A stretch of DNA of 64,000 bases, taken from assembly GCA_030390025.1 (NCBI GenBank), contig CM059447.1, positions 13,640,001-13,704,000 on the forward strand. Reading direction: 5' to 3'. Both the position numbers and the translations under genes were made by a program. This stretch comes from Squalus acanthias (taxonomy: Eukaryota). The notes under the pieces are model-generated. The model did no database searches and was not told the origin of the DNA. It saw only the letters and a program-made list of their open reading frames with translations. This document shows positions 289 through 49,690 of the stretch, one piece after another; the stretch's first letter is position 1, and each line of letters opens with the position of its first letter.

Positions 289-2037
289 CTGTCAAATCAA
301 ATTTATGATGTTTAAGATTAAATGCTGAGACATCGACGATATCACAATACTCCCAGCCAAAATATCTACTTCATATGTACTGTTTAACAGGAAGTAGTAT
401 ATAGCAGATTTAATTAAAACATTTTTAATAACAAATTTATTTTTCAGCTTTCAAAATGAGCAGGGACTTTTTGTCATTTAGATGATTGTACACATCTAAC
501 ATTGAATATTAAAACACAGAATTGGAGAATTGTACAGAACAATAAACAACTCGTAATTTACTGAGCACATAGATGATTTAAATTCAGGAAAGTAGATGGT
601 TAAGTAATTCCAATCACTGAGCTATCAAGTACATACTAGAAGAATGTAAGAAAACCCAGGGATAAGAAAACCCCATTTAACCTCTGTCCCTTAGTACATT
701 AATTCCCTTTGCATTTTGAATGAACCCATTAGGGTTGTCTCTATTACCTTGCTTGGTAGATCATTTGAGTAAAACATTTTTTCTGCTATTTGATCTAAAT
801 TTACTTCTCACTCACTTCCATTTTTTCCTCTGATTCTATTTTCTTGGTGTACTTTGAAGTAATGATTTGGTTGCACTGTATCTAGACTATTTAGTATTAT
901 ATATACTTCAGTGAGGTCCTCGTCCAACCCATTGCCAATCACATGGTGGTTATCTGATTATTTGTAAAATGTGAACGTTTGAAATTAAATCCAGTAATAT
1001 TTATATTTTGATTATTTCAACAATCTTTCATTAATATTATGAAAGGAAATCCACTAATCTACATAAAAGCTAATTTTATAAATAATAGCGTAGGGTGTCA
1101 TATGAGTCGGATGTCTGTGAAGCCTTCAGTAGGTTATCATTTTAAGAAAAGATCCCACATGTAATTTTGTCCTGCTGCATGCAGAGAAAAAAAAAATCAA
1201 AACTGAACTTAATTTCTTCCCATTATAAAAGAAGCCATCCAGTTTAATTTTATCTTCTGTTCTGGTGCAGGCAAATAACTAAGTAACACAACAGCTCTCA
1301 GACACTGCAATAGGATCAAACAGCTGAAAGTCAATACAGCGAACAAAACAGCATATTGATCCAGTTACTTGGAGTTGTTTGCATGTATATGCTGCCTGAA
1401 ATCTAAGGCTTTTCATTTTCTTAATAGCATCATATCCTAGATCAAACTATTGCTGTATAGTTGTTCTGGTGCAAAGATTTACAATTTATTTTCATTAAAC
1501 AAAAGACTGTACTAAAAGGTTCATTACACAGGCAATGAAACAACCAACCTTCAGTAACAGCATGCAAAATGTCCCCCTCAGCGTGGTATCCGCCTCACGG
1601 ATACACTGCAGCAGCTCTTACCACCACTGATACAGTGACCCCATTTAAATCAGGCGGAACAGGGTCTTAAAGAGTACTGGCATTTTCTTTGGGGTGGGGG
1701 GGCGGGGGGGGGGGGGAGAGAATTCAGGTGCAGTTTTTTGTGGCAGATTTGAGGCGGTAGCCTTTAAGAACACATCTTTTCGGTTTCCCAGCCCAAAGTG
1801 GATGGTAATTCAGATGAGAATTCAGACCAGTGTGAGATGCAGTTTGTAAAGGCTGTAAAATGTGTTAATGCCCAAAAGTATGTCCTTCACAAGAATTTAG
1901 TTAAAATTATTCAATCAACACAATTTTCAATGAGTGGATAGTAATGGTTTGTATCTATTCAGTACAAGAAACTAAACCATTGTTAAAATGTTTGTGGTTG
2001 GATCGCCAGATCTCAGCTGAATAATGTGTGTTAAACA

Positions 2038-2897
2038 ACTAATGGGATGAGGAGGCTCCTTGAATATCCCCATCCTCAATGGTGGCGGAGCCCAGCATGT
2101 GAGTGCAAAAGACAAGGCTGAAGCATTTGCAACCATCTTCAGTCAGAAGTGCCGAGTGGGTGATCCATATCGGCCTCCTCCTGAGGTTCCCACCATCACA
2201 GAAGCCAGTCTTCAGCCAACTCGATTCACTCCACATGATATCGAGAAACGTCTGAGCGCACTGGATACAGCAAAGGCTGTGGGCCCCGACAACATCTCGG
2301 CTGTCGTGCTGAAGACTTGTGCTCCAGAACTAGCCGCGCCTCTAGCCAAGCTGTACCAGTACAGCTACAACACTGGCATCTACTCGACAATGTGGAAAAC
2401 TGCCCACGTATGTCCTGTCCATAAAAAGCAGGACAAATCTAATCCGGCCAATTACCATGCAGGACAAAGCAGCCTGCTTGATTGGCACCCCATCCACCAC
2501 CTTAAACATTCATTCCCTCCACTACCAGTGCACCGTGGCTGCAGTGTGTACCATCTACAAGATGCACTGCAGCAACTCGCCAAAGCTTCTTCGGCAGCAC
2601 CTCCCAAACCCGTGACCTCTACCACCTAGAAGGACAAGAGCAGCAGGCACATGGGAACACCATCACCTCCAAGTTCCCCACCATCCTGACTTGGAAATAT
2701 ATCGCCGTTCCTACATCGTCGCTGGGTCAAAATCCTGGAACTCCCTCCCTAACAGCACTGTGGGAGTATCTTCACCACACGGACTGCAGTGGTTCAAGAA
2801 GGTGGCTCACCACCACCTTCTCAAGGGCAATTAGGGATGGGCAATAAATGCTGGCTTTGCCAGTGATGCTCACCTTCCAGGAACGAACAAAAAAAAA
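2038..2897 (+). mobile_element. CR1/L2-clade LINE fragment with internal deletion and 3' end
   Basis: ORF 2060-2629 has pre-RT motifs (KAVGPDNI, LKTCAPELAAPL, WKTAHVCPVHKKQDKSNPANY), then jumps at about 2455 to the element's 3' end, which has AATAAA and an A-rich tail near 2890. Confidence 0.9.
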
Positions 2898-2954
2898 TTA
2901 TTAACTTAGAATATTTCTTTTATTTGATTAATTTTGTCTCTCTCTCCCAAACGG

Positions 2955-3145
2955 GATACCGGATGAGATAAAAAATAGATACGAGAGGTACTAGAAAGGC
3001 TGGTAATACTTAAAAGTGGATAAGTCACCCGGTCCGGATGGGATGCATCCTAGGTTGCTGAGGGAAGTAAGGGTAGAAATTGTGGAAGTGCTGGGCACAG
3101 GGGTGGTGCCAGAGAACTGGAGGATTGCAAACGTTACACCCTGTG
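2955..3145 (+). mobile_element. CR1 LINE internal fragment
   Basis: Translates ...VDKSPGPDGMHPRLLREVRVEIVEVL, then WRIANVTP; matches the CR1 ORF at 47493-49421. Confidence 0.85.
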
Positions 3146-6114
3146 AAGTAATTGCATGAGCAACTTTCTGTTTCAGATAACTAATAATATACGTTCAAAC
3201 TAATCTAGCACAACTGGGCTGACGGGTTTTGATTGGTTTCAACTGGAAATTTTGATCAGATAATCTTTAATTGTGTTGAGGTATATTTTAGTAGTTTTCA
3301 AAAAAAGTCAAAACAGAATCCAGGTATTGTGACAGAAGCTCAATTGAAAAGTAAAAAGCATACAAATAACTTTGAACTGAATTATAACACAAATGTAAAC
3401 TGCTTATAGAGAGCCCACCCTTCAGTGCATAGATTCTGTTCCTCTGACATCACTGATGATGACAATTGGGTTGAACCAAATGATCTGTTGGTAAAGACTC
3501 TTGATCATGTTACTTATTCCTTCTTTGTCTCCCTTTAAAATTAGAAAGATTCCTGAAACACTTTCATGGATTCCACTATGCATTTATGATCTCTAAATGC
3601 ATCAAAAGGTTTTATTAGACCAAACTAAATAAATAACTTCTTTCTCACTCCTATGCAAAATCTCAAATGTGAGTCAGTCAGACCCTGAAGAGAACATTTA
3701 CATTAAATTTATTATGGACTGTTGTGCCTTAGATGTTAATGTTCAGATTCTGATCTGCTCTGTTATTTCTGAGCCAGTTCATATCTTTCCTTGTAAGATT
3801 CTGGATTCCTTTTAAAATGAAATAGGGTGCAGGCCCATTAAAGAGGCATTGACTCTGTGGAAAAAGTGTTTAATAAAGATTATTATTCCCTTGTTTCCAA
3901 GTACACAGCGCAACATGAAGTAAATGACATAGAATCATAAAATGTTACAGCACAAACAGGCCATTAGGCCATCAAATCAGTGTCAACTATTCTAAACAGT
4001 ATCAGTTAACATTTATGTCCTGTGTTGTTACAGGCCAAGGAGTGCCATCCTGTGGAGCAATTCTATTACATTAATGCATTTACAAAATATTAACTGATAA
4101 TTTCAGCCCCACAGATAGCACATTTAGTGCAGTTCAGCAGGGCTCGTACTGACTGAGATACCCCATTATTCACTTACAACTGCCTCAAATCAATTGATTT
4201 TGTGCTTATTAATGATATTGATGAAAGTGCTGGGCAGTTTGCATTTTTCCATTTTCTGCACCATTAATCTTACTGGGTTGTACAGTTGTCACTATCTGGT
4301 TTTGTACCAGTCTCATTTTTAAGCCAAAATTAGTATTTGCATTACTTTTTTTTATTGACTATAGCACCAAATCATATATTTTATAATTTCTATAACCTTT
4401 ATCCTGGAAAATAAACTATAATAAAACAAATTACATAATTCACAATGACATGATTAAGCTTACCTATCAAATTGACTGTTCTATCTATGAATACCTTCAC
4501 TAACATTTACTGAAAACTTCAGCCTCCCTGAAAAGCCTAGGCAAGCAGTTAATGCCAGAAATTCCCACCATACATCAATATTATTCTCTCAACTTGAAGT
4601 GTCGTTTTCTTCATGCTGTAACAAGATTTCGGAGTTTTTTTGTTTTTCCAAAAGATTTGAAAACAAGCTGCAGAATGAATTTTGAAAGCCTTTTTCAGGT
4701 AAAGTTTCATGATATCAAGTGGATACATTTTTACTTCAGGGAGAGAGTATCTGTGCTATCATCAGCTATTTGTAAGCCCTGCCCCATTATAGTAGCGGGG
4801 AAAAGTCCTGCAGAGTAATTAAACTGTTTTTGTATAAAAATCTGATAACATGAACCATGAACTTTGGGACTGTTTTATATGAGGTAAATTATGTTTATCT
4901 GAGGATAATTTTAGAAAAATGTTATGATTAACAACAAGTCTTTCGGTTTGTAAGCCTGTCCCTTCAATCATCTTTCCGAATCATTGTTAATGGAACAAAG
5001 ATGCAAAACCATTTTCAGGCTTGAAAGCAAAGTTAGGGTTTTATTTTGTTCATTTATACAGTTCATGTTTATTAAACCAGCCATATTTATAAATTTACTG
5101 TTAGAAAGAGCAAGTAACAAAGGCAAATGATTTACAGCACTGTTCTTTTTTCATTATACTGTACTGAGAATTACAAAAAGGTTTAAATATGTAACAGGAA
5201 GAGGTCAGAGATAAACGTATCGGTGAGCAAGACTTTAGAAGTAGAGGTTCCACAGGAGATGGCAAGGTCAAGGAAGTGGCTGTGGGTGGAAGAGATTATA
5301 TGAAGGGTGAGACTGAGTGACGAATGGCATGCTTAGAGGCTACTACCTATAGTACCCATGGAAGCATTAGTTTGAACTTTCTTCCTCAGGTCACCTGTTT
5401 TCAATATCTCATCACGTAGCTTTTAAGACTCCTCTCTGGGCCATCCCTTCTACAATTATGACTGCATTCATATATATAAAACTGCATGATCATACTGGCT
5501 TTTGACCATAATTAGTTTAAAATCTTCCTAAAGTCAATTTGTAACAGTACACCCCACCTGAAAACGGCCCAGCACATCTGGCATTATTACTGGACACAAG
5601 AGTATATTTACCAAGCTTGAGCTCCCAGTGGAGAACTTCACTCAAAGGGGACATGGGTTGGAGATTCGGGCTGCATTGTTGTAGCCCTATCTCTGAACTG
5701 CACTCTCTTCATGCGTGACTCCCTGCTGGGAATGTAGAACTGCTGAATTTACCCAAAATGGATGCAGAGGTGATAAATGGAATATCTCAACCAAGCCTGA
5801 TCCTGTCCTCACCTAATGTCAATGCAAGTAGTTTTCTGTGGATTAAAGAAACATTGATGTCTGCGCTTCTACAACTGAAGTTGTTGAAAATCATTTAGTT
5901 ACACTTGGGAATTGTGATGATTTGTAAATAATAATTTAACAGCCTGATTATATATTAAAATACAGTATTTACCTTAAATATCAGGAAAAAAATTATATCT
6001 CAGAGAAAATGGAATATAAGATCATGCATGTTTTATTTAAAAATGTCATAATTGCTTCAACGTGAGTAGATTATATGCCTCCTACTTACCAAGTGACTGA
6101 AGTTCTTTTTCTTC

Positions 6115-8160
6115 TCAATCCGGACTCGCATTATGTAAATGAAAAGATATCCTGGAGGAACCAGTCAGAGCAACAGGCTGCTGTTCCTGTCCCTCACTGG
6201 CAGTATTCATGATTAATTTCCTTTTCACTCTGTGGTCCAACACGTTCAGTCCAAGTTCTGGAGTGGCTGAGATTTTTGAATTATCCATATCTTGCTTCAA
6301 CTTAAAATCCTGCGTCCAAAGTGGAGATGGGAATTCTACATCAAAGGACTTGTTAATAGTTCGGTTTTGTGCAATTCTGTCTGCAGTCGTATGAATGGTG
6401 GACTTCAGATTTGCCATCGGAGGTGTTGATGTTATGGGAGCATTCTGTACAAATAACTGTTGGCTGGGGCACTGCATCTTTTGTGCCACAAAGGACTGTA
6501 ATTTACTGGCATGAAATGCAGCAGGGGCACTATTAACAGTCTGTGGGATAGAATTTTCATGTGATAGAAACCTTAGGTCATTATGTCCTTTATTCCAGTG
6601 TAAGTCAGCTACTGCAATGTCAGCAGTTTCATTATCTTCCTGTGTGCACTTGATGCTCAAAGAGTCACTGTTTCTCTCCAGTGGAGTTGCTTCATTATTC
6701 AACAACTGCTCATTTATTGTTACTTCACAGGATGAAGTTAATGTAGTTTGCAAACCTGCTCTCAGAGCTTTCAGATTGGCCAAGTTCACCTCCAGTTCAG
6801 TAATACATTGTGTTTGAGCCCGGTTGATTTTTGGTTGGTCTCCTGGTGTGTCTGAACTACTTTCCTTCTCCTGTTGTTCAATCATTTCACTATCTACATT
6901 GATTGGAGCATTTACTAGCAGCTTTTGTGATGGACAGGTCCACTTTTTTGAAAATACTGGACTTTTGCTCAATGCTAAGTTGGGTACCATGAAGCCTCTA
7001 TTATGACTTTTTGCAGACCTGTTCACATCGTTACCTCCCTCCTGGCACTGGGATACTTGTCCCCCAGAGTTTGAATGTACTGGACTTCTCTTGGAGCTGT
7101 AACGTTTATTCATCACTTTAAATGGCTTTGAGAACTTGAAGATATTCTTTGGATCCACCTCATCTATTTTGGTACCTTTATTCTCCTTAGGCAAGATTTG
7201 ACACTTGTGTAGCACTTCATTTGTTTTTTCTGTGTTCACATCGCTGGCTATGAAAGTTTGGTTGCATTCAGAAAAAGTATGGGAACATGGCGAGAAACCA
7301 GAAGGCAGAGCTGGATCAGGGTTTAACAATGTGTTAGGCAGCTTGGCTTTTCCTGAATCATTTCTTTTCCCCCTGGTATTTTTGCTATCTTTAGTTGCAT
7401 CCAAATCATTTTCCTTGTCAGAAAGGTTTTCGTCTTGCACTTTGAACTGTAAGCTATTCAGCAGCTTTAGTTGTCTCTGCCTATCTCGATACTCCCTTGA
7501 TTTTTTCAATAGGCTCTGTAGGCTTAGTGCAGTGGTGTCAGGAGACGAATTCTGACTCATATTGGTCTCATCAGTAGGATGATGAAAGTGTTCCGAGTTA
7601 CTGCCACTGGTTTTATCTCCTGTGGATATTACTATAGAGCCATCACTCCCAACTTCACATAAATTCTGTTTATTGGTAGAATTGATTGCATTGTGCTTTG
7701 TTGTATCAATTATTTTATGCACAGTAAAGTTTTGAAGAGCATGAACAGCTGCATTTTGAAAGTCATCTGATTTTGGACCATTATTTATGTGACTATTGGC
7801 CCTTGTATTATCACTTGCCACAAGACCCAAGCAGGAAGAATCAGCCTGGTAATTTGAAATACCAGATTTTTCATTAATCAAATCAGAGGTCACTATTACA
7901 GGCACATGATCTGTCACAAGGCTTGTCGTATATGTTTCTTCAATCTCATTTGACATCTGTGCAATAGTAGGCTCAAATATTAGAGGTTCACTGTGTCCAA
8001 GTGAGGTTTTGTGCATAGTGGTTGTGTTGGTTGTGGTGTTCCATTCCTCTACGCATCCACTGTTCATCTCTTTAACTGGGTCAGTATTCACAGGCATGTT
8101 GGGCAACATTAGAAATGAATAATCTTCTAGAGTCTCCTGAATTGCTGGCACTTTGATTAG
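6115..8160 (-). CDS. CCP110-like gene, large coding exon 3 (ends in TGA)
   Basis: Acceptor TTGTTATAG| at 8161, phase 0 (LIKVPAIQ...), with a 2-kb open frame. CP110-like blocks: SLQSLLKKSREY..ENLSDKEND, INKSFDVEFPSPL, RVKRKL (recalled human: SLQNLMKKSKEY, LNKSYDVKNPSPL, VKRRL). TGA at 6115-6117; donor G|GTAAGT at 6090/6089. Confidence 0.85.
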   Translation of the reverse strand, partial: LIKVPAIQETLEDYSFLMLPNMPVNTDPVKEMNSGCVEEWNTTTNTTTMHKTSLGHSEPLIFEPTIAQMSNEIEETYTTSLVTDHVPVIVTSDLINEKSGISNYQADSSCLGLVASDNTRANSHINNGPKSDDFQNAAVHALQNFTVHKIIDTTKHNAINSTNKQNLCEVGSDGSIVISTGDKTSGSNSEHFHHPTDETNMSQNSSPDTTALSLQSLLKKSREYRDRQRQLKLLNSLQFKVQDENLSDKENDLDATKDSKNTRGKRNDSGKAKLPNTLLNPDPALPSGFSPCSHTFSECNQTFIASDVNTEKTNEVLHKCQILPKENKGTKIDEVDPKNIFKFSKPFKVMNKRYSSKRSPVHSNSGGQVSQCQEGGNDVNRSAKSHNRGFMVPNLALSKSPVFSKKWTCPSQKLLVNAPINVDSEMIEQQEKESSSDTPGDQPKINRAQTQCITELEVNLANLKALRAGLQTTLTSSCEVTINEQLLNNEATPLERNSDSLSIKCTQEDNETADIAVADLHWNKGHNDLRFLSHENSIPQTVNSAPAAFHASKLQSFVAQKMQCPSQQLFVQNAPITSTPPMANLKSTIHTTADRIAQNRTINKSFDVEFPSPLWTQDFKLKQDMDNSKISATPELGLNVLDHRVKRKLIMNTASEGQEQQPVALTGSSRISFHLHNASPD

Positions 8161-9929: not shown

Positions 9930-10070
9930 CTGCATAGTGTTGAGCAGTTTGTGTACCTCCAATAATTGCATACTTGTTTCTGTTTCATGCAGTTTGTCCT
10001 TTGAGGTTTTACTGTAGCTCTTGGCCTTCAATTGATATTCCTGTATCTCTTTCCTCTGTTCTGGGGAAAG
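9930..10070 (-). CDS. CCP110-like gene, coding exon 2
   Basis: TTCTTTCCAG| ... CAG|GTGAGG; 141 nt, phase 0/0. Translates LSPEQRKEIQEYQLKAKSYSKTSKDKLHETETSMQLLEVHKLLNTMQ (recalled human: LNIEKRKEMQQEKQKA...VQEILDNVQ). Confidence 0.85.
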
Positions 10071-11233: not shown

Positions 11234-11374
11234 CAGTGGTGAAAGTATGGCAGTGCCATGAAACCGAATCAAAGAACCTCCACAGTTTGTTGCCGGTAGA
11301 GAACTTTTTTCCAAGTTAACCTTAGCTTTAATCTGAGCAAGTTGAGCTTTGCAGAATTCTTCGTAACTCTCCAT
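11234..11374 (-). CDS. CCP110-like gene, first coding exon (GC donor)
   Basis: Acceptor CTTTCTACAG|A ATG. Translates MESYEEFCKAQLAQIKAKVNLEKSSLPATNCGGSLIRFHGTAILSPL, versus recalled human CP110 MEEYEKFCEKSLARIQ...SLIRFHGVAILSPL. Donor is CTG|GCAAGT. Confidence 0.9.
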
Positions 11375-11634
11375 TCTGTAGAAAGAAATACACAGAAAAT
11401 AACGTCATTTCATGAAATACCCTACATGGTATTGTCTAAATAAACTAAATTCAGTGGTTAAAAATACCAGCATTGCACACTTTGCATTGATACTTCTCAA
11501 GATGTACTTTCTGAAACCTATCAATCACTTTTCCTATACGAAACTTCAATTTCACCAGATCCATAGACTCAGTTCAGCAGAGAAAAGGCTCTTCAACAGC
11601 AAAATGGGCAACTCTCCTTCACATACACAGAAAC

Positions 11635-24912: not shown

Positions 24913-25689
24913 CTAAAACCAAACAACAGGATGATGTAAAGTCTCTTCAAAAAGATTTAAAACACTTTTTTTTTTAAAAAGGAGTGTCCCCAATATTATC
25001 AATCATCCATGAAGAATTTACAAAACCAATCATTAGTGCTGGCTGCAACAATCCTAGGCTAGAGAACAGCATTCTCTGATGCTGCTGATTTATCCTTTCT
25101 TTTAGCCTCAATACTTGACAACATGAGCTAGTCCGTGTACTTGGGATGGTATGAAACTCCATTTGGCTTTAGGCCTTCTTCATTTGTTGTGTGTGCAGAG
25201 TTTGAACCACCCTCAGACCGCTTCTGCAGGTTACAGATTTAATGTTAAAAAGACTCCAGTAACTTCCACATGCCTGCCAATTTTCCAGGATATTCTGGCA
25301 ATCTGATGCTTTTTAGAAGATGCAGCGTTTGTTGCAGCCCCACAACAATGCCAATGGTTAAAAAAAACATAAAATGTTTCTTTTAGCAGCCAGCAACAAG
25401 ACGATCTATTGCAACGGCAGAGGGTTTCAAAATCTCTAGGCAATAGGGGCTACAATCTCTGCTCGGTGGTAGTTGGGGGTGTAATCTATGCCCAAACTGT
25501 TCAGTGCAGGAGATGGGGAAAGAGAGCGGCTATGACCTCGGCTGAGGATGTGAAAATAACGTCTATCCATTACTTGCCTTAGTTTGGCAAGATAACCTGA
25601 ATCACTACTCTGCCTTTCAGGTGTACATACATTCAGTGCTCAATGGAAGGCTGTCTTGATGTCTGCTTATTGAGGGAGGGTAGACTGGC

Positions 25690-26100
25690 ATGACCTCTGC
25701 TCAGTGCAGTGGGGGGGGGGGGCGCGACCCCTGCTCAGTGCAGTGGGGGGGGGGCATGACCTCTGCTCAGTGCAGTGGGGGGGGGGGGGCGCGACCTCTG
25801 CTCAGTGCAGTGGGGGGGGGGGGGGCGCGACCTCTGCTCAGTGCAGTGGGGGGGGGGGGCGCGACCTCTGCTCAGTGCAGTGGGGGGGGCATGACCTCTG
25901 CTCAGTGCAGTGGGGGGGGGCGCGACCTCTGCTCAGTGCAGTGGGGGGGGCGCGACCTCTGCTCAGTGCAGTGGGGGGGGGGTCGCGACCTCTGCTCAGT
26001 GCAGTGGGGGGGGGCGCGACCTCTGCTCAGTGCAGTGGGGGGGGGCGCGACCTCTGCTCAGTGCAGTGGGGGGGGGGGGGCGCGACCTCTGGTCAGTGGT
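25690..26100. repeat. G-rich minisatellite, about 13 copies of a ~30-35 bp unit
   Basis: Unit (GC/AT)GACCTCTGCTCAGTGCAGT-Gn-C with variable G-run length. It accounts for the three Gly-rich ORFs at 25690-26257. Confidence 0.95.
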
Positions 26101-26424
26101 GGGTGTGCGGGGTTGTTTGGAAGATGTAGTGTGTTTCAGTGCTCTTCCTTGCCGAGTCTACCATTCCTCAGCTCTGCGGCCATTTTCAGTACATCCGCCT
26201 AAAGACTACGATAAGCCAGTAAATTCTTTCAACATCTCCTTAAGGTTAATATGGTAAGTCTCAAATATTCTGATAAATCAGGTTATTTTGGACTTTGAAA
26301 TGTTTGTATGGCCTGTTTCTGGGAATCTGGAAATAGGATTTTTTTTTCCCCCAGAAAGGGCTACAGAGGGTGCAGTTTGAGGCTGTCACATAATGTTAGG
26401 TGCTGCCCCGTTGTAATCTATTGG

Positions 26425-28643: not shown

Positions 28644-30043
28644 TTTATAAAATAATGAAATACTGTTGCAACTATAGTCTTTTAAAAAAAAAAAATTCAG
28701 TCTAATCTCCCTCTAATATTCTCCCCATTTTTCTCCCCTGGTCCTCTCATGTTATACATCACCCAAAGGCAATGCTGCTGTGTACCTGCTGCTAGGAATT
28801 ACATGGCATTGGCTTCTCCCTCTAATTTTCTCTCTTCGCGGAAAGCCTCCATTCAGCACTTCCCCATAGCGATGTCGCCGAGTGCAGGAACTTAGTACAA
28901 AGGGATTTAACCTGGGTCCTGTCATTTGCATGCTGCCATGTCATTGTGCTGCAACATGCTACACCATTGATGCATATGACTTTTTTGTGGTGGTAAGCAC
29001 TTTTATGATTAAAGAGCGGTATACTATTAAATGTATTTTCCTTCTGAAAACTGTCGGGAAACAAAGGAACTCTGCTGTAGTTATTAATTGGGGAAAAACT
29101 TGTAAGCAAAAAATAGAAATTGTTCATCTATAATGGAAAATACTGAAAAGCTGAAATATGATGAATCAAATAAATGGTAATATGGTACAGTGTTGTTATT
29201 GTTGCTAACCTGACAGACAAAACCTAATATTAAGTCAGATTTGCACAAAGAATGTGATGTTGGATGATTATCTCGCTAAAAACTCAAGCAGTCAAAGAAA
29301 CTAAGTAGATGTAGTTGAAGGAGATTAACTACAACAAAAAGAGATGGCATAGAAATTGGTGAGAAGGGATTCAAGAATTGAGCCAATATATCGGGGTTCT
29401 TATGCATTTCTTTTTTCGATATTTAATCACAATTAGGGTACTGAGATATAAAATGGTGAGGTAACAAAAAAAACACCTTTTGCTGTAATTCATATTCAAC
29501 CCTTTGCTGGATCATTTAGTGAAAAACTTTGTTGCATTACAGAGTTTTGAAGATTGTGAAGTTACAGTTCAAAGTCCCTTCCATTTTGTTTTCTGGCTGG
29601 TACCCTCGAAACAGTTTTGCTCAACTCTTCAGCATCCTGTACAATAAAGCACACAATTTTCAGCTCTCCTGGTTAAATGCAGCTCCTTCATGTGATTCTA
29701 CAAATCAATATTTACACATGTGCCAAGTAACATGGATAACTGTGCCAATCTGAAAACATATTTTCAAAGTACCTATTGTCCTACAGAATAAGGACAAGCT
29801 TGGTTTCTTGCTTCGACTCCAGTACAACATCCTAATGCAGCACCTCTCAACAAAAATCAGAAGAAAAAAAACAAAGTGCAACACAAATCTTTAAATCAGA
29901 TAAGTGAGCTACTATTCAGCCTTTTCATTTTCGCCCAAATGGGAACAGCTTTTAAGCAGCTAACTGCCCATTGTATTGATTGATTTAAGCCCAGCACAAA
30001 AGCAATTAAACACAAAATAAAGTAAGGTGCAGTTTAAACTTAC

Positions 30044-30110
30044 CCAGAGCTTTCATGAGTTGTTCGAAGTTTTCCTGACTCTCCAATTCGTACTTTCCAT
30101 TGAAAGCCAT
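30044..30110 (-). CDS. FABP1-like (liver-type fatty acid-binding protein) exon 1
   Basis: MAFNGKYELESQENFEQLMKAL G|GTAAGT, 67 nt. The four exons (67+173+93+51 nt) give 127 aa, colinear without gaps with recalled human FABP1. Confidence 0.93.
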
Positions 30111-30896
30111 TTGGAATTTATTTGCTGTGAAGTAGTTAAGAGCTGATTCTGGAGAATATCAGCAGCTCTTAAAGAGTTGTCTTCAAATTAATTTTCAAAA
30201 AATAGAATGAGTAACTCCTTGATAAGTAATATTAATAGTGACTTACTACCGTACTATCAAGGACATGAATCTGTAAATAAGATGGTAATTTTCTGTTTAT
30301 ACAGGATTACCAGTGGTAACCCAGGGGATTGGCAATGGAAAAACAATGCAGCTGAGGCTTGTTTTTAAACAAAAGTAATGCAAAAGGCGTCACCATTTAT
30401 TCTGTGGCCTTTAATAATTATATGTTCTAGCTGATGATTATATGTCACCTGAACTATTAGACTTTGCTGTTGAAATTAGGCATAGGGCTATAGATGCTTT
30501 CAAAGTTAGTTACCAGAAGCTCAAAGGCACCAATAAAAAAGATAAAAAGTTCACAGTTGCTGCTGATAAGGTTGGATCTTCCATATTTTACTTTAATATG
30601 GGCAACACGAACAACTGCTTTCTCTCCACCCTCTGTCCCATCTGGGAACTTTGGAACTTTTATTTGTGCCAGACTGCAGTCATACTGCACCCGAAGCAAA
30701 ACCCAAATGATGTGAAACTACTTTCTGGAGGTATTCTCACACCTTGTGTCACCACGCAGTCAGATCAGCAACCTAAACCCCAAGTTATACTACCCATTGC
30801 GAATCAATGCATGTCTGAAACTGCTCTATGTTGACACAAAACCAGTAGAACAGGCCTTTCATATGAAACTGTAATAATTGATTACTGTTATTGGAT

Positions 30897-46104: not shown

Positions 46105-46557
46105 CTAAGATCTTGCATCGGTTTTGGATTTGACTATTGTGATAACGCTGGTGGTAGCCACTTTGCCTGGCATAATGGGGCCAATGGCAGAGGTGATGGG
46201 ACCTCTAACCGGCATGACGGGTCCTCTGGCCACGGTCCTGGCGAAGCTCTGCAAGGCCTCATACTTGGATCGCAGCGCATCTAGCTCCAACTTCATGCTG
46301 GCATTCTCAGATGCCAGCTTCTCCACCTCTTGCTGAAGTTCTGCTTTCTGCTTCTCTAATTCTTCCTTCTGAGTTACCCTCTTGACACGGCAGCTGGCTG
46401 CGTAGCCACGGTTCTTGAGCGTTCTGCGACGTTGTTTCAGCCGGATGATGTCCTCTTTGGTTAGGCCCCGCAGATGTTGGTTCAGTTCTCGAACAGACAT
46501 CGAGACAAGCTCCTGATCTGTGAGACTGGCTCCATTTTCACCTGGCTCTCGCTTCAC
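46105..46557 (-). CDS. MAFG: MAFG (small Maf bZIP), last coding exon
   Basis: CACAG|GTG, then [31 protein letters not shown]...[21 protein letters not shown]...[20 protein letters not shown]. The C-terminus is MAFG-specific; 150 aa. Confidence 0.97.
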
Positions 46558-47417
46558 CTGTGTGTGGGGTGGTGGGGGGGGGCGGGGGGCAGAGGGGGGT
46601 GTGGAGGTAGAGAAGAAGGAGAAAGCTTTCAAAATGTAGCACCAACTTAAAAAAAGGCATTTAGAAATTCTGAGTCATAGGACAGAAATTCCCATTTGAT
46701 AGGTTAAACGCATTCAAAATTATGGCAAATATGAGGGTCCAATGCATCTTTTCCTAACACTGGGGGAGGATTCTCAACATTACCATTTATCACAAAATCA
46801 TAATCACATGTATAAAGAACAGGTGAACAATTCATTATAAAATAGCAAACAGTGGAAGTGTTGACAGTTTCAAAAAGGTTATTTCTTCATAGAAGTGCTT
46901 TCATATGAAGGTTGGTCCTTTGACACCACAAAAATATTCTCAATCTATAACCCATGCAACTCATACTTCCACCACCAAAAATAGCTGTCTGTACACAACA
47001 ATTCCTAATGTTTAACCAACTGGCTGATCTTACTTTAGATTAAATAAATGACCTTTAAAACCACTGTTAGGAGAAAATGTGAAAATATTAAACACTAAAT
47101 AAGTTGAAGTGTTCAAGTACAAGGGGGCACAAATGGTCATTAGGAAGTAAGGAAATCAACTTTTTCCACTCAAAAGATAATAAAAGGTGGTAAATAAATT
47201 AGCAGGGAAGGCCTTTAAAGAAGACAGTATAAATAGGAGTCCAAGGGAGAGCTCGATGAGAGATTTAAGAAAAGGAAGGATATGATAAGGAAGTAGGCAG
47301 GGGGGCTGATCCATCAAAAAGGGAGTAGCTTGTTGGGCTTAAATGTTATGTAGTTCATTTGCAGGGAACAAAGTTCACTAACATACTAGCACGCCCAAAA
47401 TTCCTAACTGTACCATT

Positions 47418-49690
47418 CATAGAACATAGAACATAGAACAGTACAGCCCCTTCGGCCCTCGATGTTGTGCCGAGCATTGTCCAAGACCAAGATCAAGCTA
47501 TCACACTCCCTATCACTCTGGTGTGCTCCATGCGCTTATCCAATAACCGCTTGAAAGTTCCTAAAGTGTCCGACTCCACTATCACAGCAGGCAGTCCATT
47601 CCACACCCCAACCACTCTCTGAGTAAAGAATCTACCTCGGACATCCCTTCTATATCTCCCCCCATGCACCTTATAGTTATGCCCCCTTGTAACAGCTGCC
47701 TCTACCCGAGGAAATAGTCTCTGAACATCCACTCTATCTATCCCCCTCATCATCTTATAAACCTCTATTAAGTCGCCTCTCATCCTCCTCCGCTCTAAAG
47801 AGAAAAGCCCCAACTCCCTCAATCTTTCCTCATAAGACCTCCCCCCCAAACCAGGCAGCATCCTGGTAAATCTCCTTTGCACTCTTTCCAATGCTTCCAC
47901 GTCCTTCCTATAGTGAGGTGACCAGAACTGCACACAATATTCCAAATGTGGTCTCACCAAGGTCCTGTACAGTTGCAGCATAACCTCACGGTTCTTAAAC
48001 TCAAACCCTCTGTTAATAAACGCCAACACACCATAGGCCTTCTTTACTGCTCTATCCACTTGAGTGGCAACCTTCAGAGATCTGTGGATATGAACCCCCA
48101 GATCCCTCTGCTCCTCCACGTTCCTCAGAACCCTGCCGTTGACCCTGTAATCCTTATTCAAATTGGCCCTACCAAAATGAATCACCTCGCACTTATCAGG
48201 GTTAAATTCCATCTGCCATTTTTCGGCCCAGCTCTGCATCCTATCAATGTCTCTTTGCAGCCGACAACTGCCCTCCACCTCATCCACTACTCCACCAATC
48301 TTGGTGTCATCAGCAAATTTACTGATCCACCCTTCAGTCCCCTCCTCCAAGTCATTGATAAAAATCACAAACAGCAGAGGACCCAGCACCGACCCCTGTG
48401 GCACACCGCTGGTAACTGGTCTCCAGTCCGAAAATGTTCCATCCACCACCACCCTCTGCCTTCTATGAGATAGCCAGTTACTTATCCAATCGGCCAAATT
48501 TCCCTCTATCCCACAACTCCTTACTTTCTTCATGAGACGACCATGGGGAACCTTATCAAACGCCTTACTAAAATCCATGTATACGACATCAACTGCTCTA
48601 CCTTCATCTACACACTTAGTTACCTCCTCAAAGAATTCAATCAAATTTGTTAGGCAAGACTTACCCTTCACGAATCCGTGTTGACTATCCCTGATTAAGT
48701 TGCCCCTTTCCAAATGGTCATAAATCCTATCCCTCAGGACCTTTTCCATTATCTTACCAACCACCGAAGTAAGACTAACCGGCCTATAATTACCAGGGTC
48801 ATTCCTATTTCCTTTCTTGAAGAGAGGAACAACATTCGCCACTCTCCAGTCCTCTGGCACCATCCCCGTGGACAGTGAGGACCCAAAGATCAAAGCCAGA
48901 GGCTCTGCAATCTCCTCCCTTGCCTCCCAAAGAATCCTAGGATATATCCCATCTGGCCCAGGGGACTTATCGACCCTCAGGTTCTTCAAAATTGCTAAAA
49001 CATCTTCCCTCAGAACATCTACCACCTCCAGCCTATCCACCTTTATCACACTCTCATCCTCAAGAACATGGCCCCTCTCCTCGGTGAACACTGACGAAAA
49101 GTATTCATTCATCACCTCTCCTATCTCTTCTGACTCCATGCACAAGTTCCCACTACTGTCCTTGACCGGCCCTACCCTCACCCTGGTCATTCTTTTATTT
49201 CTCACATAAGAGTAAAAAGCCTTGGGGTTTTTCTTGATCCGACCCGCCAAGGACTTCTCATGCCCCCTCCTAGCTCTCCTAAGCTCTTTTTTTAGCTCAT
49301 TCCTTGCTACCTTGTACCCCTCAATCGACCCAACTGAACCTTGTTTTCTCATCCTTACATACGCTTCCTTTTTCCTCTTGACTAGACATTCAACCTCTTT
49401 TGTGAACCATGGTTCTCTCACTCGCCATTTCCTCCCTGCCTGACAGGGACATACCTATCAAGGACACGCAGTAATTGCTCCATGAAAAAGCTCCACTTTT
49501 CGTTTGTGCCTTTCCCTGATAGTTTCTGTTCCCATCTTATACTCCCTAATTCTTGCCTAATCGCATCATAATTACCCCTCCCCCAATTATAAACCCTGCC
49601 CTGCCGTATGGCCCTATCCCTCTCCATTGCAATAGTGAAAGTTACCGAATTGTGGTCACTATCTCCAAAGTGCTCTCCCACATACAAATC
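47418..49690 (-). mobile_element. Young 5'-truncated CR1 LINE with open RT-containing ORF2 fragment, in the MAFG intron
   Basis: 642-aa ORF 47493-49421 with YMDFSKAFD, GVPQGSVLGP, FADD and CR1 C-terminus. An upstream piece (GDSDH, end of the endonuclease domain) is offset by one frameshift at about 49420. Tail (CATAGAA)n on +. Confidence 0.96.

Follow-up and report, generated by a model that had tools for sequence, protein, structure and literature searches.

The CP110-like locus and its in-frame TGA

The window analysed here, a stretch of 64,000 nucleotides (nt) from Squalus acanthias (CM059447.1, 13,640,001-13,704,000), contains on its minus strand a CP110-like gene whose large exon is interrupted by an in-frame TGA shortly before its 3′ end. 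A sequence-only reading had placed this stop 25 nt before a perfect phase-1 splice donor, and had offered a truncated CP110, readthrough or a nonsense allele as explanations. Three coding exons (11374-11234, 10070-9930 and 8160-6090) form a 775-residue open reading frame (ORF). The locus, at G000:C24:13.64-13.65 Mb, is single copy in the genome. Organisms compared through contigs of their sequencing runs are denoted by single letters (e.g. organism B, run X7). The features of the gene, including the untranslated region (UTR), are as follows:

11234..11375, minus strand: coding exon 1, ATG at 11374; residues 1-47, MESYEEF...RFHGTAILSPL
9930..10070, minus strand: coding exon 2; residues 48-94, first coiled coil (CC1 / PF16025 region)
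6090..8160, minus strand: large exon 3, 2071 nt; residues 95-775, mostly disordered; motifs SLQSLLKKSREYR (307), LSKSPV (491), LEVNL helix (550), INKSFDV (696) and VKRKL (739)
6115..6117, minus strand: TGA stop, codon 776
6090..6114, minus strand: EEKELQSL+G, the last coding part of exon 3 before the TGA arose; at present drifting 3′ UTR
6084..6089, minus strand: phase-1 splice donor GTAAGT at the ancestral intron position before the exon of the second coiled coil (CC2); RNA use in organism B
6032..6037, minus strand: AATAAA, 52 nt inside intron 3; possible intronic polyadenylation signal
3527..3854, minus strand: exon 4, acceptor TTTTTCCACAG at 3865-3855; single copy, now entirely 3′ UTR; the limit at 3527 is the end of the RNA contig, not a mapped 3′ end
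3713 and 3616, minus strand: AATAAA sites in exon 4

The spacing between stop and donor is exact: the TGA occupies 6117-6115 and the GT of the donor 6089-6088, leaving 25 nt between the stop and the junction. The minus-strand letters are GCG AGT CCG GAT TGA GAA GAA AAA GAA CTT CAG TCA CTT G/GTAAGT, translated as A S P D stop E E K E L Q S L and followed by the phase-1 G. At the equivalent of codon 776 chimaera and Heptranchias have Cys, and the sawshark has Arg. At the other end of the gene the ATG of exon 1 sits one base after an AG acceptor, which points to a further non-coding exon upstream. Exon 1 ends in a GC donor, CTG/GCAAGT, and scored 55.6 bits against the N-terminal family profile (54.2 bits for the canonical CCP110 exon). 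Exon 2, which carries CC1, has diverged from the family (14.7 bits versus 52.3 bits for the canonical exon). The intron 1 donor (11233-11232, minus strand) has GC where the canonical CCP110 has GT; a 62-residue chimaera model reads on with Ala at the intron 1 point, and the GC donor may be old.

To trace the stop in other organisms, region 6010-6270 was compared with contigs from four other-organism runs: X7 (organism B), X14 (C), X17 (E) and X18 (F). Over the gene the read-contig comparison rests on 40 of 146 rows, with about four exon differences unlisted. The sole letter change in organism B was at 6121, and the TGA was exact. In organisms C and F the TGA lay ~100 letters inside the aligned ends, with zero listed differences. 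Organism E showed no listed difference at the TGA and probably also carries the stop, although the alignment ends only 6-8 letters away and leaves one difference unlisted. Among the matches listed, runs X5 and X9 had no piece over the stop. The X17 contig of organism E departs from the window sequence at 6097, 7 nt before the donor. The departing letters were not found anywhere in 184 kb at up to 5 mismatches and by eye resemble an old repeat at 5620-5755 in opposite orientation; the departure may be an insertion, another splice or an artefact.

The presence of the same TGA in B, C and F refutes an assembly error or a private allele. A recent nonsense allele, polymorphism or error in a full-length gene would be in keeping with a frame that is open up to a consensus donor, and also with the X6 contig of organism A (another individual, probably of the same species as the window), where one difference in 442 letters over the TGA is unplaced. 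A full-length gene is contradicted by the next exon, which stops after five codons, and by the lack of C-terminal exons at the locus (see below), and we regard this explanation as scarcely credible. The doubt about the raw sequence and the suggestion of a recent pseudogenising mutation were thus not borne out.

Organisms C, E and F have common changes that are absent from A and B. Because at some of these sites each side retains the sawshark residue, the TGA probably dates from the ancestor common to the A/B and C/E/F groups. The codons behind it have drifted since, with a 3-nt deletion in C and F and two substitutions within one codon in F. In two close relatives the frame is cut even earlier, by a separate stop at codon 754 in organism C and by a frameshift ending at codon 759 in organism E; both fall within 22 codons of the TGA.

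Use of the donor, which the sequence-only reading had left to RNA data, was indicated by run X7 of organism B. A contig of 1834 letters covers exon 3; its match ends at 6090 and is followed by 29 letters that, by eye, equal 3826-3854 save for one position, the junction target adjoining a strong acceptor. The sequencing runs carry no RNA label, and X7 was taken as RNA only from this GT donor-AG acceptor join. In the old frame exon 4 reads ESMPL-stop. Without the TGA, the sawshark orthologue runs on to LQSL-ETVPL, and that of Heptranchias ends QSL-GAM. Since the sawshark lacks the TGA yet ends in ETVPL, the short terminal exon must be older than the stop, which trims only 14 residues (X-EEKELQSL-ESMPL). 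In an unspliced transcript the frame would stop two codons into intron 3.

Programmed readthrough or selenocysteine insertion could be imagined at an in-frame TGA that replaced an ancestral Cys codon and is followed by an open frame. Exon 4 stops after five codons, so readthrough would regain no domain, the gain being limited to the same 14 residues. The codons that would be read have drifted, C and E stop upstream of the TGA, and the context is TGA-GAA, not the leaky readthrough motif TGA-CTA. A longer protein produced in this way is extremely improbable.

A stop less than 50-55 nt from the last exon junction escapes nonsense-mediated decay (NMD). We infer that the mRNA with the TGA does so if exon 4 is the last exon; the proposed escape thus stands as far as the distance of 25 nt is concerned, and holds only on the condition that nothing is spliced behind the exon at 3854. 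The AATAAA at 6037 offers a possible alternative transcript end inside intron 3. It had no letter change in organisms C or F and is spanned by an unspliced X6 contig. Run X7 also has intron 3 contigs (3826-4155, 4236-4816 and 5412-5675), which fit intron retention or alternative 3′ ends.

A second, ancient CP110 lineage, C-terminally truncated in the sharks and rays examined

The canonical CCP110 is intact elsewhere in the same genome, at G000:C18:27.42-27.46 Mb. Its first three coding introns have the same positions as those of the window gene, including the phase-1 intron after the large exon. That exon ends in a phase-1 G/GTAAG and is followed by the CC2 exon, and the chimaera CP110-like protein reads QSV-G-EVEKHLL at the aligned place. 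The match of both boundaries identifies donor 6089 as an ancestral internal exon end, as had been proposed. The eight open codons after the TGA are the remnant of this old exon end and are unremarkable alone.

Exons encoding the C-terminal half were sought with five C-terminal segment profiles, built from chimaera and 71 hits, across 184 kb made up of the window and the 120 kb on its left. At the locus no profile exceeded 3.7 bits, as against 32-75 bits in the C18 control. The CC2 profile reached at most 2.2 bits (38.6 bits on C18), and the KGFLTRRL/IQ and downstream microtubule-binding region at most 3.7 bits (32-75 bits on C18). Hence the profiles found no C-terminal CP110 exons in 290-6080, in agreement with the sequence-only reading, nor within 126 kb downstream. 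A genome-wide search with the chimaera C-terminus (E up to 10) returned five matches, three of them C18 exons and two weak and unrelated, with none on C24. Two candidates were rejected. A putative relic exon ~10 kb left of the window (tblastn, E=0.12) was without fitting splice sites and belonged to a high-copy repeat (3577 candidates). The LAQK read in frame in exon 4, whose register fits the AG at 3802-3801, hinted at a decayed CC2 exon, but this was unsupported: 37 of 24,606 AG-anchored frames scored equal or better, and local alignment gave p=0.32.

The TGA is therefore not the event that truncated the protein; on the sequence evidence the C-terminal half was already gone. All 14 shark and ray proteins in our sample (14 elasmobranch database proteins, 13 species) are without CC2 and the IQ region, and the orthologue of the chimaera is full length. 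The loss of CC2, the IQ region and the capping exons likely occurred in the common ancestor of sharks and rays.

Phylogenetic analysis used a single method (FastTree, 34 rows picked from hits, midpoint root). The window gene grouped with the chimaera CP110-like protein and those of sturgeon, gar and teleosts (si:ch73-100l22.3), not with the C18 gene, which grouped with CCP110 of chimaera, coelacanth, lungfish, gar and tetrapods. FastTree support was 100 both for the nine chondrichthyan rows and for the 19-row CP110-like clade. The two-clade tree dates the duplication of CP110 and CP110-like before the split of cartilaginous and bony fishes. Both copies were found in chimaera, gar, coelacanth and the shark of the window, and the paralogue may stem from the early vertebrate whole-genome duplication. 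The proposed N-terminal-only paralogue of CP110 is thus upheld by the 775-residue ORF and its separate clade. The history as a whole, an old second CP110 lineage that lost its C-terminus and only later acquired the TGA, is very probably correct.

With the canonical proteins (human, Xenopus and C18) the window gene shares the N-terminal motif and CC1, the SLQxLLKKSREY helix (307), NKSYDV (696) and KRxL (739), a motif of cyclin-binding type whose role as an RxL element we presume. It differs from them in forming a separate clade, in the absence of CC2, KGFLTRRL/IQ and the later exons, and in its diverged CC1. The sawshark orthologue scored 39.1 bits against PF16025 (CaM_bind / CC1; cut-off 27); the window exons, scanned one by one, remained below the Pfam cut-off for this family. 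The CP110-like proteins of chimaera (XP_007886805.2), sturgeon, paddlefish, gar and teleosts form the orthologous clade and have the LSKSPV and LEVNL motifs in common with the window gene, identity between exon 3 and the chimaera protein being about 44%. These chimaera and bony-fish proteins, all known as database annotations, are full length (about 870-1260 residues) with CC2 and IQ, unlike the shark and ray proteins, which lack both.

Coelacanth LOC102358644 belongs to the same clade on a long, weakly placed branch and, according to its annotation, also lacks the IQ region and the C-terminus. It keeps CC2, so that its truncation lies one exon later than that of the shark and apparently arose independently of the one in sharks and rays. 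LOC102358644 is also without most of the SLQxLLKKS helix.

The Paramormyrops member of the paralogue clade carries the NCBI name 'cp110', and 'cp110' in fish may mean the paralogue rather than CCP110. In the accessible parts of PMC8614155, PMC12635215 and PMC3897186 the zebrafish gene behind 'cp110' was not specified and CEP97 binding was not mapped; the morpholino target in the accessible text of PMC12635215 was not assignable to either cp110 gene. Our literature search, which covered neither supplements nor most subscription journals, found no paper on the paralogue or its truncation. A second vertebrate CP110 is already present in databases, and in the sharks and rays sampled it is reduced to the N-terminal portion.

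Truncation series, selection and neighbourhood

None of the 14 elasmobranch proteins ends before residue ~522. Their ends, in window numbering, are the following:

two stingrays: near 522
Heterodontus: 540
two Scyliorhinus torazame models: ~577 and ~696
two lamniforms: 656
three skates: 656-679
Pristis: 748
S. canicula: 771
others: in exon 4

The proteins thus form a nested natural deletion series with ends from ~522 to 789, produced by about 11 independent stop or frameshift events, counting those of C and E and the TGA. For the early-ending species the protein records say nothing on the survival of downstream exons as DNA. Skate contigs (Logan-derived) of about 2 kb encode a protein of 569 residues. 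A search for shorter homologues yielded one protein.

The recurrent stops would be expected of a slowly dying duplicate, which lost its C-terminus, kept a residual function and is now eroding from its 3′ end, the TGA being one decay step. In this vein, C and E added stops of their own close to the TGA, and in the last 51 codons the differences in C, E and F were six non-synonymous to one synonymous, as under neutrality. The coelacanth orthologue is likewise truncated and long-branched, in Hypanus the model is missing its N-terminus, and searches gave no orthologue from several shark orders. The front part of the protein behaved otherwise. Apart from the Hypanus N-terminus, all 14 proteins are unbroken before ~522. 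In neutral ORF simulations (half the observed divergences, 200 runs) the median first break came at codon 15-190, and the frame stayed open to 520 in 0-19% of the runs without indels and in 0-1% with indels. Sites conserved in the outgroups (chimaera, sturgeon, gar) were invariant in elasmobranchs at 45/90, compared with 48/265 of the other ancestral sites (p=1e-8), ancestral sites being those where elasmobranchs share the chimaera residue. By region this motif-site signal was strong in residues 95-540 and weak in 541-775 (p=0.016). The exon 3 differences in A and B comprised four non-synonymous and seven synonymous changes (p=0.003-0.014).

The selection on the open exon that the sequence-only reading had suspected is therefore supported by motif conservation, ORF simulation and the small count of differences, with the tail as exception. 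These data suggest that the first ~520 residues are maintained by selection and that the tail is eroding. With 775 open codons, the spliced X7 contig, motif conservation and a synonymous excess the gene does not resemble a pseudogene, although its tail behaves neutrally. The spliced RNA of B and the coding skate contigs also argue against decay. These counter-signals cover long spans of time and are not necessarily present-day selection. We consider a dying duplicate unlikely, and it is probable that the core is still functional.

Around the gene, a small Maf bZIP exon (46105-46674, minus strand, PF03131) and a sirtuin exon (G000:C24:13749958, about 95 kb beyond the 5′ end of the gene) were found, which we take to be MAFG-like and SIRT7. 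A first exon resembling fatty-acid-binding proteins (30009-30158, minus strand, MAFNGKYELESQENF..., PF14651 E=1e-4) lies between the CP110-like and Maf genes. The ORF screen of the 120 kb left of the window detected no neighbouring gene. A pyrroline-5-carboxylate reductase match, considered for synteny, is 7.6 Mb away and uninformative. The window also contains remains of a non-LTR retroelement (47493-49454, minus strand) with a 653-residue open reverse-transcriptase frame (PF00078), a high-copy non-LTR fragment downstream of exon 4 (2051-2850) and a tandem repeat (25674-26257) of a short GC-rich unit with open frames in three phases.

Predicted mode of action of the truncated protein

The N-terminus of CP110 is linked to CEP290. 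Disorder prevailed in the structure models built for exon 3 and for the sawshark orthologue; confident helices were placed at ~4-24, 50-92, 309-339 and 539-570, the one at 50-92 coming from the sawshark model. The PDB contained no sequence matching CP110. According to the accessible part of PMC11756378, the N-terminus of human CP110 binds CEP97, a fragment of residues 1-700 is found at centrosomes, CC2 (635-717) serves in dimerisation and CPAP binding, and 581-991 binds and blocks microtubule ends. In the portion available of PMC5045295, CP110 both blocks and promotes ciliogenesis; Xenopus Cp110 without its second coiled coil was only weakly reduced in cilia suppression, and a frameshift-truncated clone was largely functional. 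The C-terminally shortened forms described in these partial sources (Xenopus Cp110-FS, Cp110 minus CCD2 and human CP110 1-700; PMC5045295, PMC11756378) still localise and are partly functional. They are experimental constructs of the canonical gene, and among those we met none removes CC2 together with all that lies beyond, unlike the shark protein.

By analogy with these forms, the shark protein would be a monomeric, mostly disordered N-terminal module, which could reach the distal centriole or basal body through its CEP97-binding region. Without CC2 and the C-terminus it would not undergo CC2 dimerisation, bind CPAP or block microtubule ends; its role would be that of an accessory modulator working alongside canonical CP110, not that of a cap. 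The TGA would be a later stop that several related sharks have in common and that shortens an already truncated protein by 14 dispensable residues. We assign a probability of about 0.7 to this reading, that of a cap-less N-terminal CP110 of an old second lineage whose core is kept and which still reaches centrioles. For centriole targeting taken by itself we see the chances as even.

A stronger functional claim, and a special case of the cap-less module, would make the protein a dedicated decoy: by sequestering CEP97 (or CEP290) it would help to remove canonical CP110 from mother centrioles, thereby promoting ciliogenesis or centriole elongation in particular tissues. The N-terminal region credited with CEP97 binding is kept while the whole microtubule-blocking half, as mapped in the available part of PMC11756378, is gone, and C-terminal loss recurs in the coelacanth. 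A decoy is disfavoured by the diverged CC1 and by the accessible data of PMC5045295, where Xenopus Cp110 minus the second coiled coil suppressed cilia almost fully and the frameshift form retained most of its function. The former still inhibits cilia, which makes partial redundancy no less plausible than a decoy, and we judge a dedicated decoy improbable. The same low weight is given to a cap-less CP110 that has been kept since the shark-ray ancestor, binds CEP97 and antagonises canonical CP110, with the coelacanth similarly truncated on its own.

Several observations weigh against a conserved cap-less module. Its function is a prediction from sequence. The human fragment 1-700 that localises includes most of CC2, which the shark protein lacks. 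The diverged CC1 makes CEP97 binding less certain, and residues 1-94 (exons 1-2) showed no excess conservation (p=0.17), background conservation being higher there; the two together mean that CEP97 binding may be weakened or lost. All 18 differences pooled were 10 non-synonymous to 8 synonymous (p=0.02-0.10), and the split between A+B and the tail was chosen after seeing the data. In C (754), in E (759) and in distant lineages the distance from stop to junction exceeds 55 nt, and splicing of intron 3 in these organisms would be expected to expose the transcripts to NMD. The protein sample is biased to long annotated ORFs and includes the Hypanus model without N-terminus. The two Scyliorhinus torazame models stop at different places, which suggests segregating truncations or assembly differences. 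Homologue searches returned no carpet-shark or requiem-shark orthologues, and the gene may be dead in some lineages. The loss of the downstream exons as DNA was checked in this genome alone.

The stop that drew attention to the locus is minor, and the gene behind it matters more. The deletion series shows which part of CP110 can stay under selection once microtubule capping is gone, and draws attention to two motifs that have received little study, SLQxLLKKSREY and LSKSPV. If the protein were indeed an antagonist, the nested deletions would map a minimal CP110 module of ~520 residues with a microtubule-independent function. The natural truncation is a ready construct for studying the roles of CP110 beyond capping, and experiments on fish 'cp110' may concern either of two genes.

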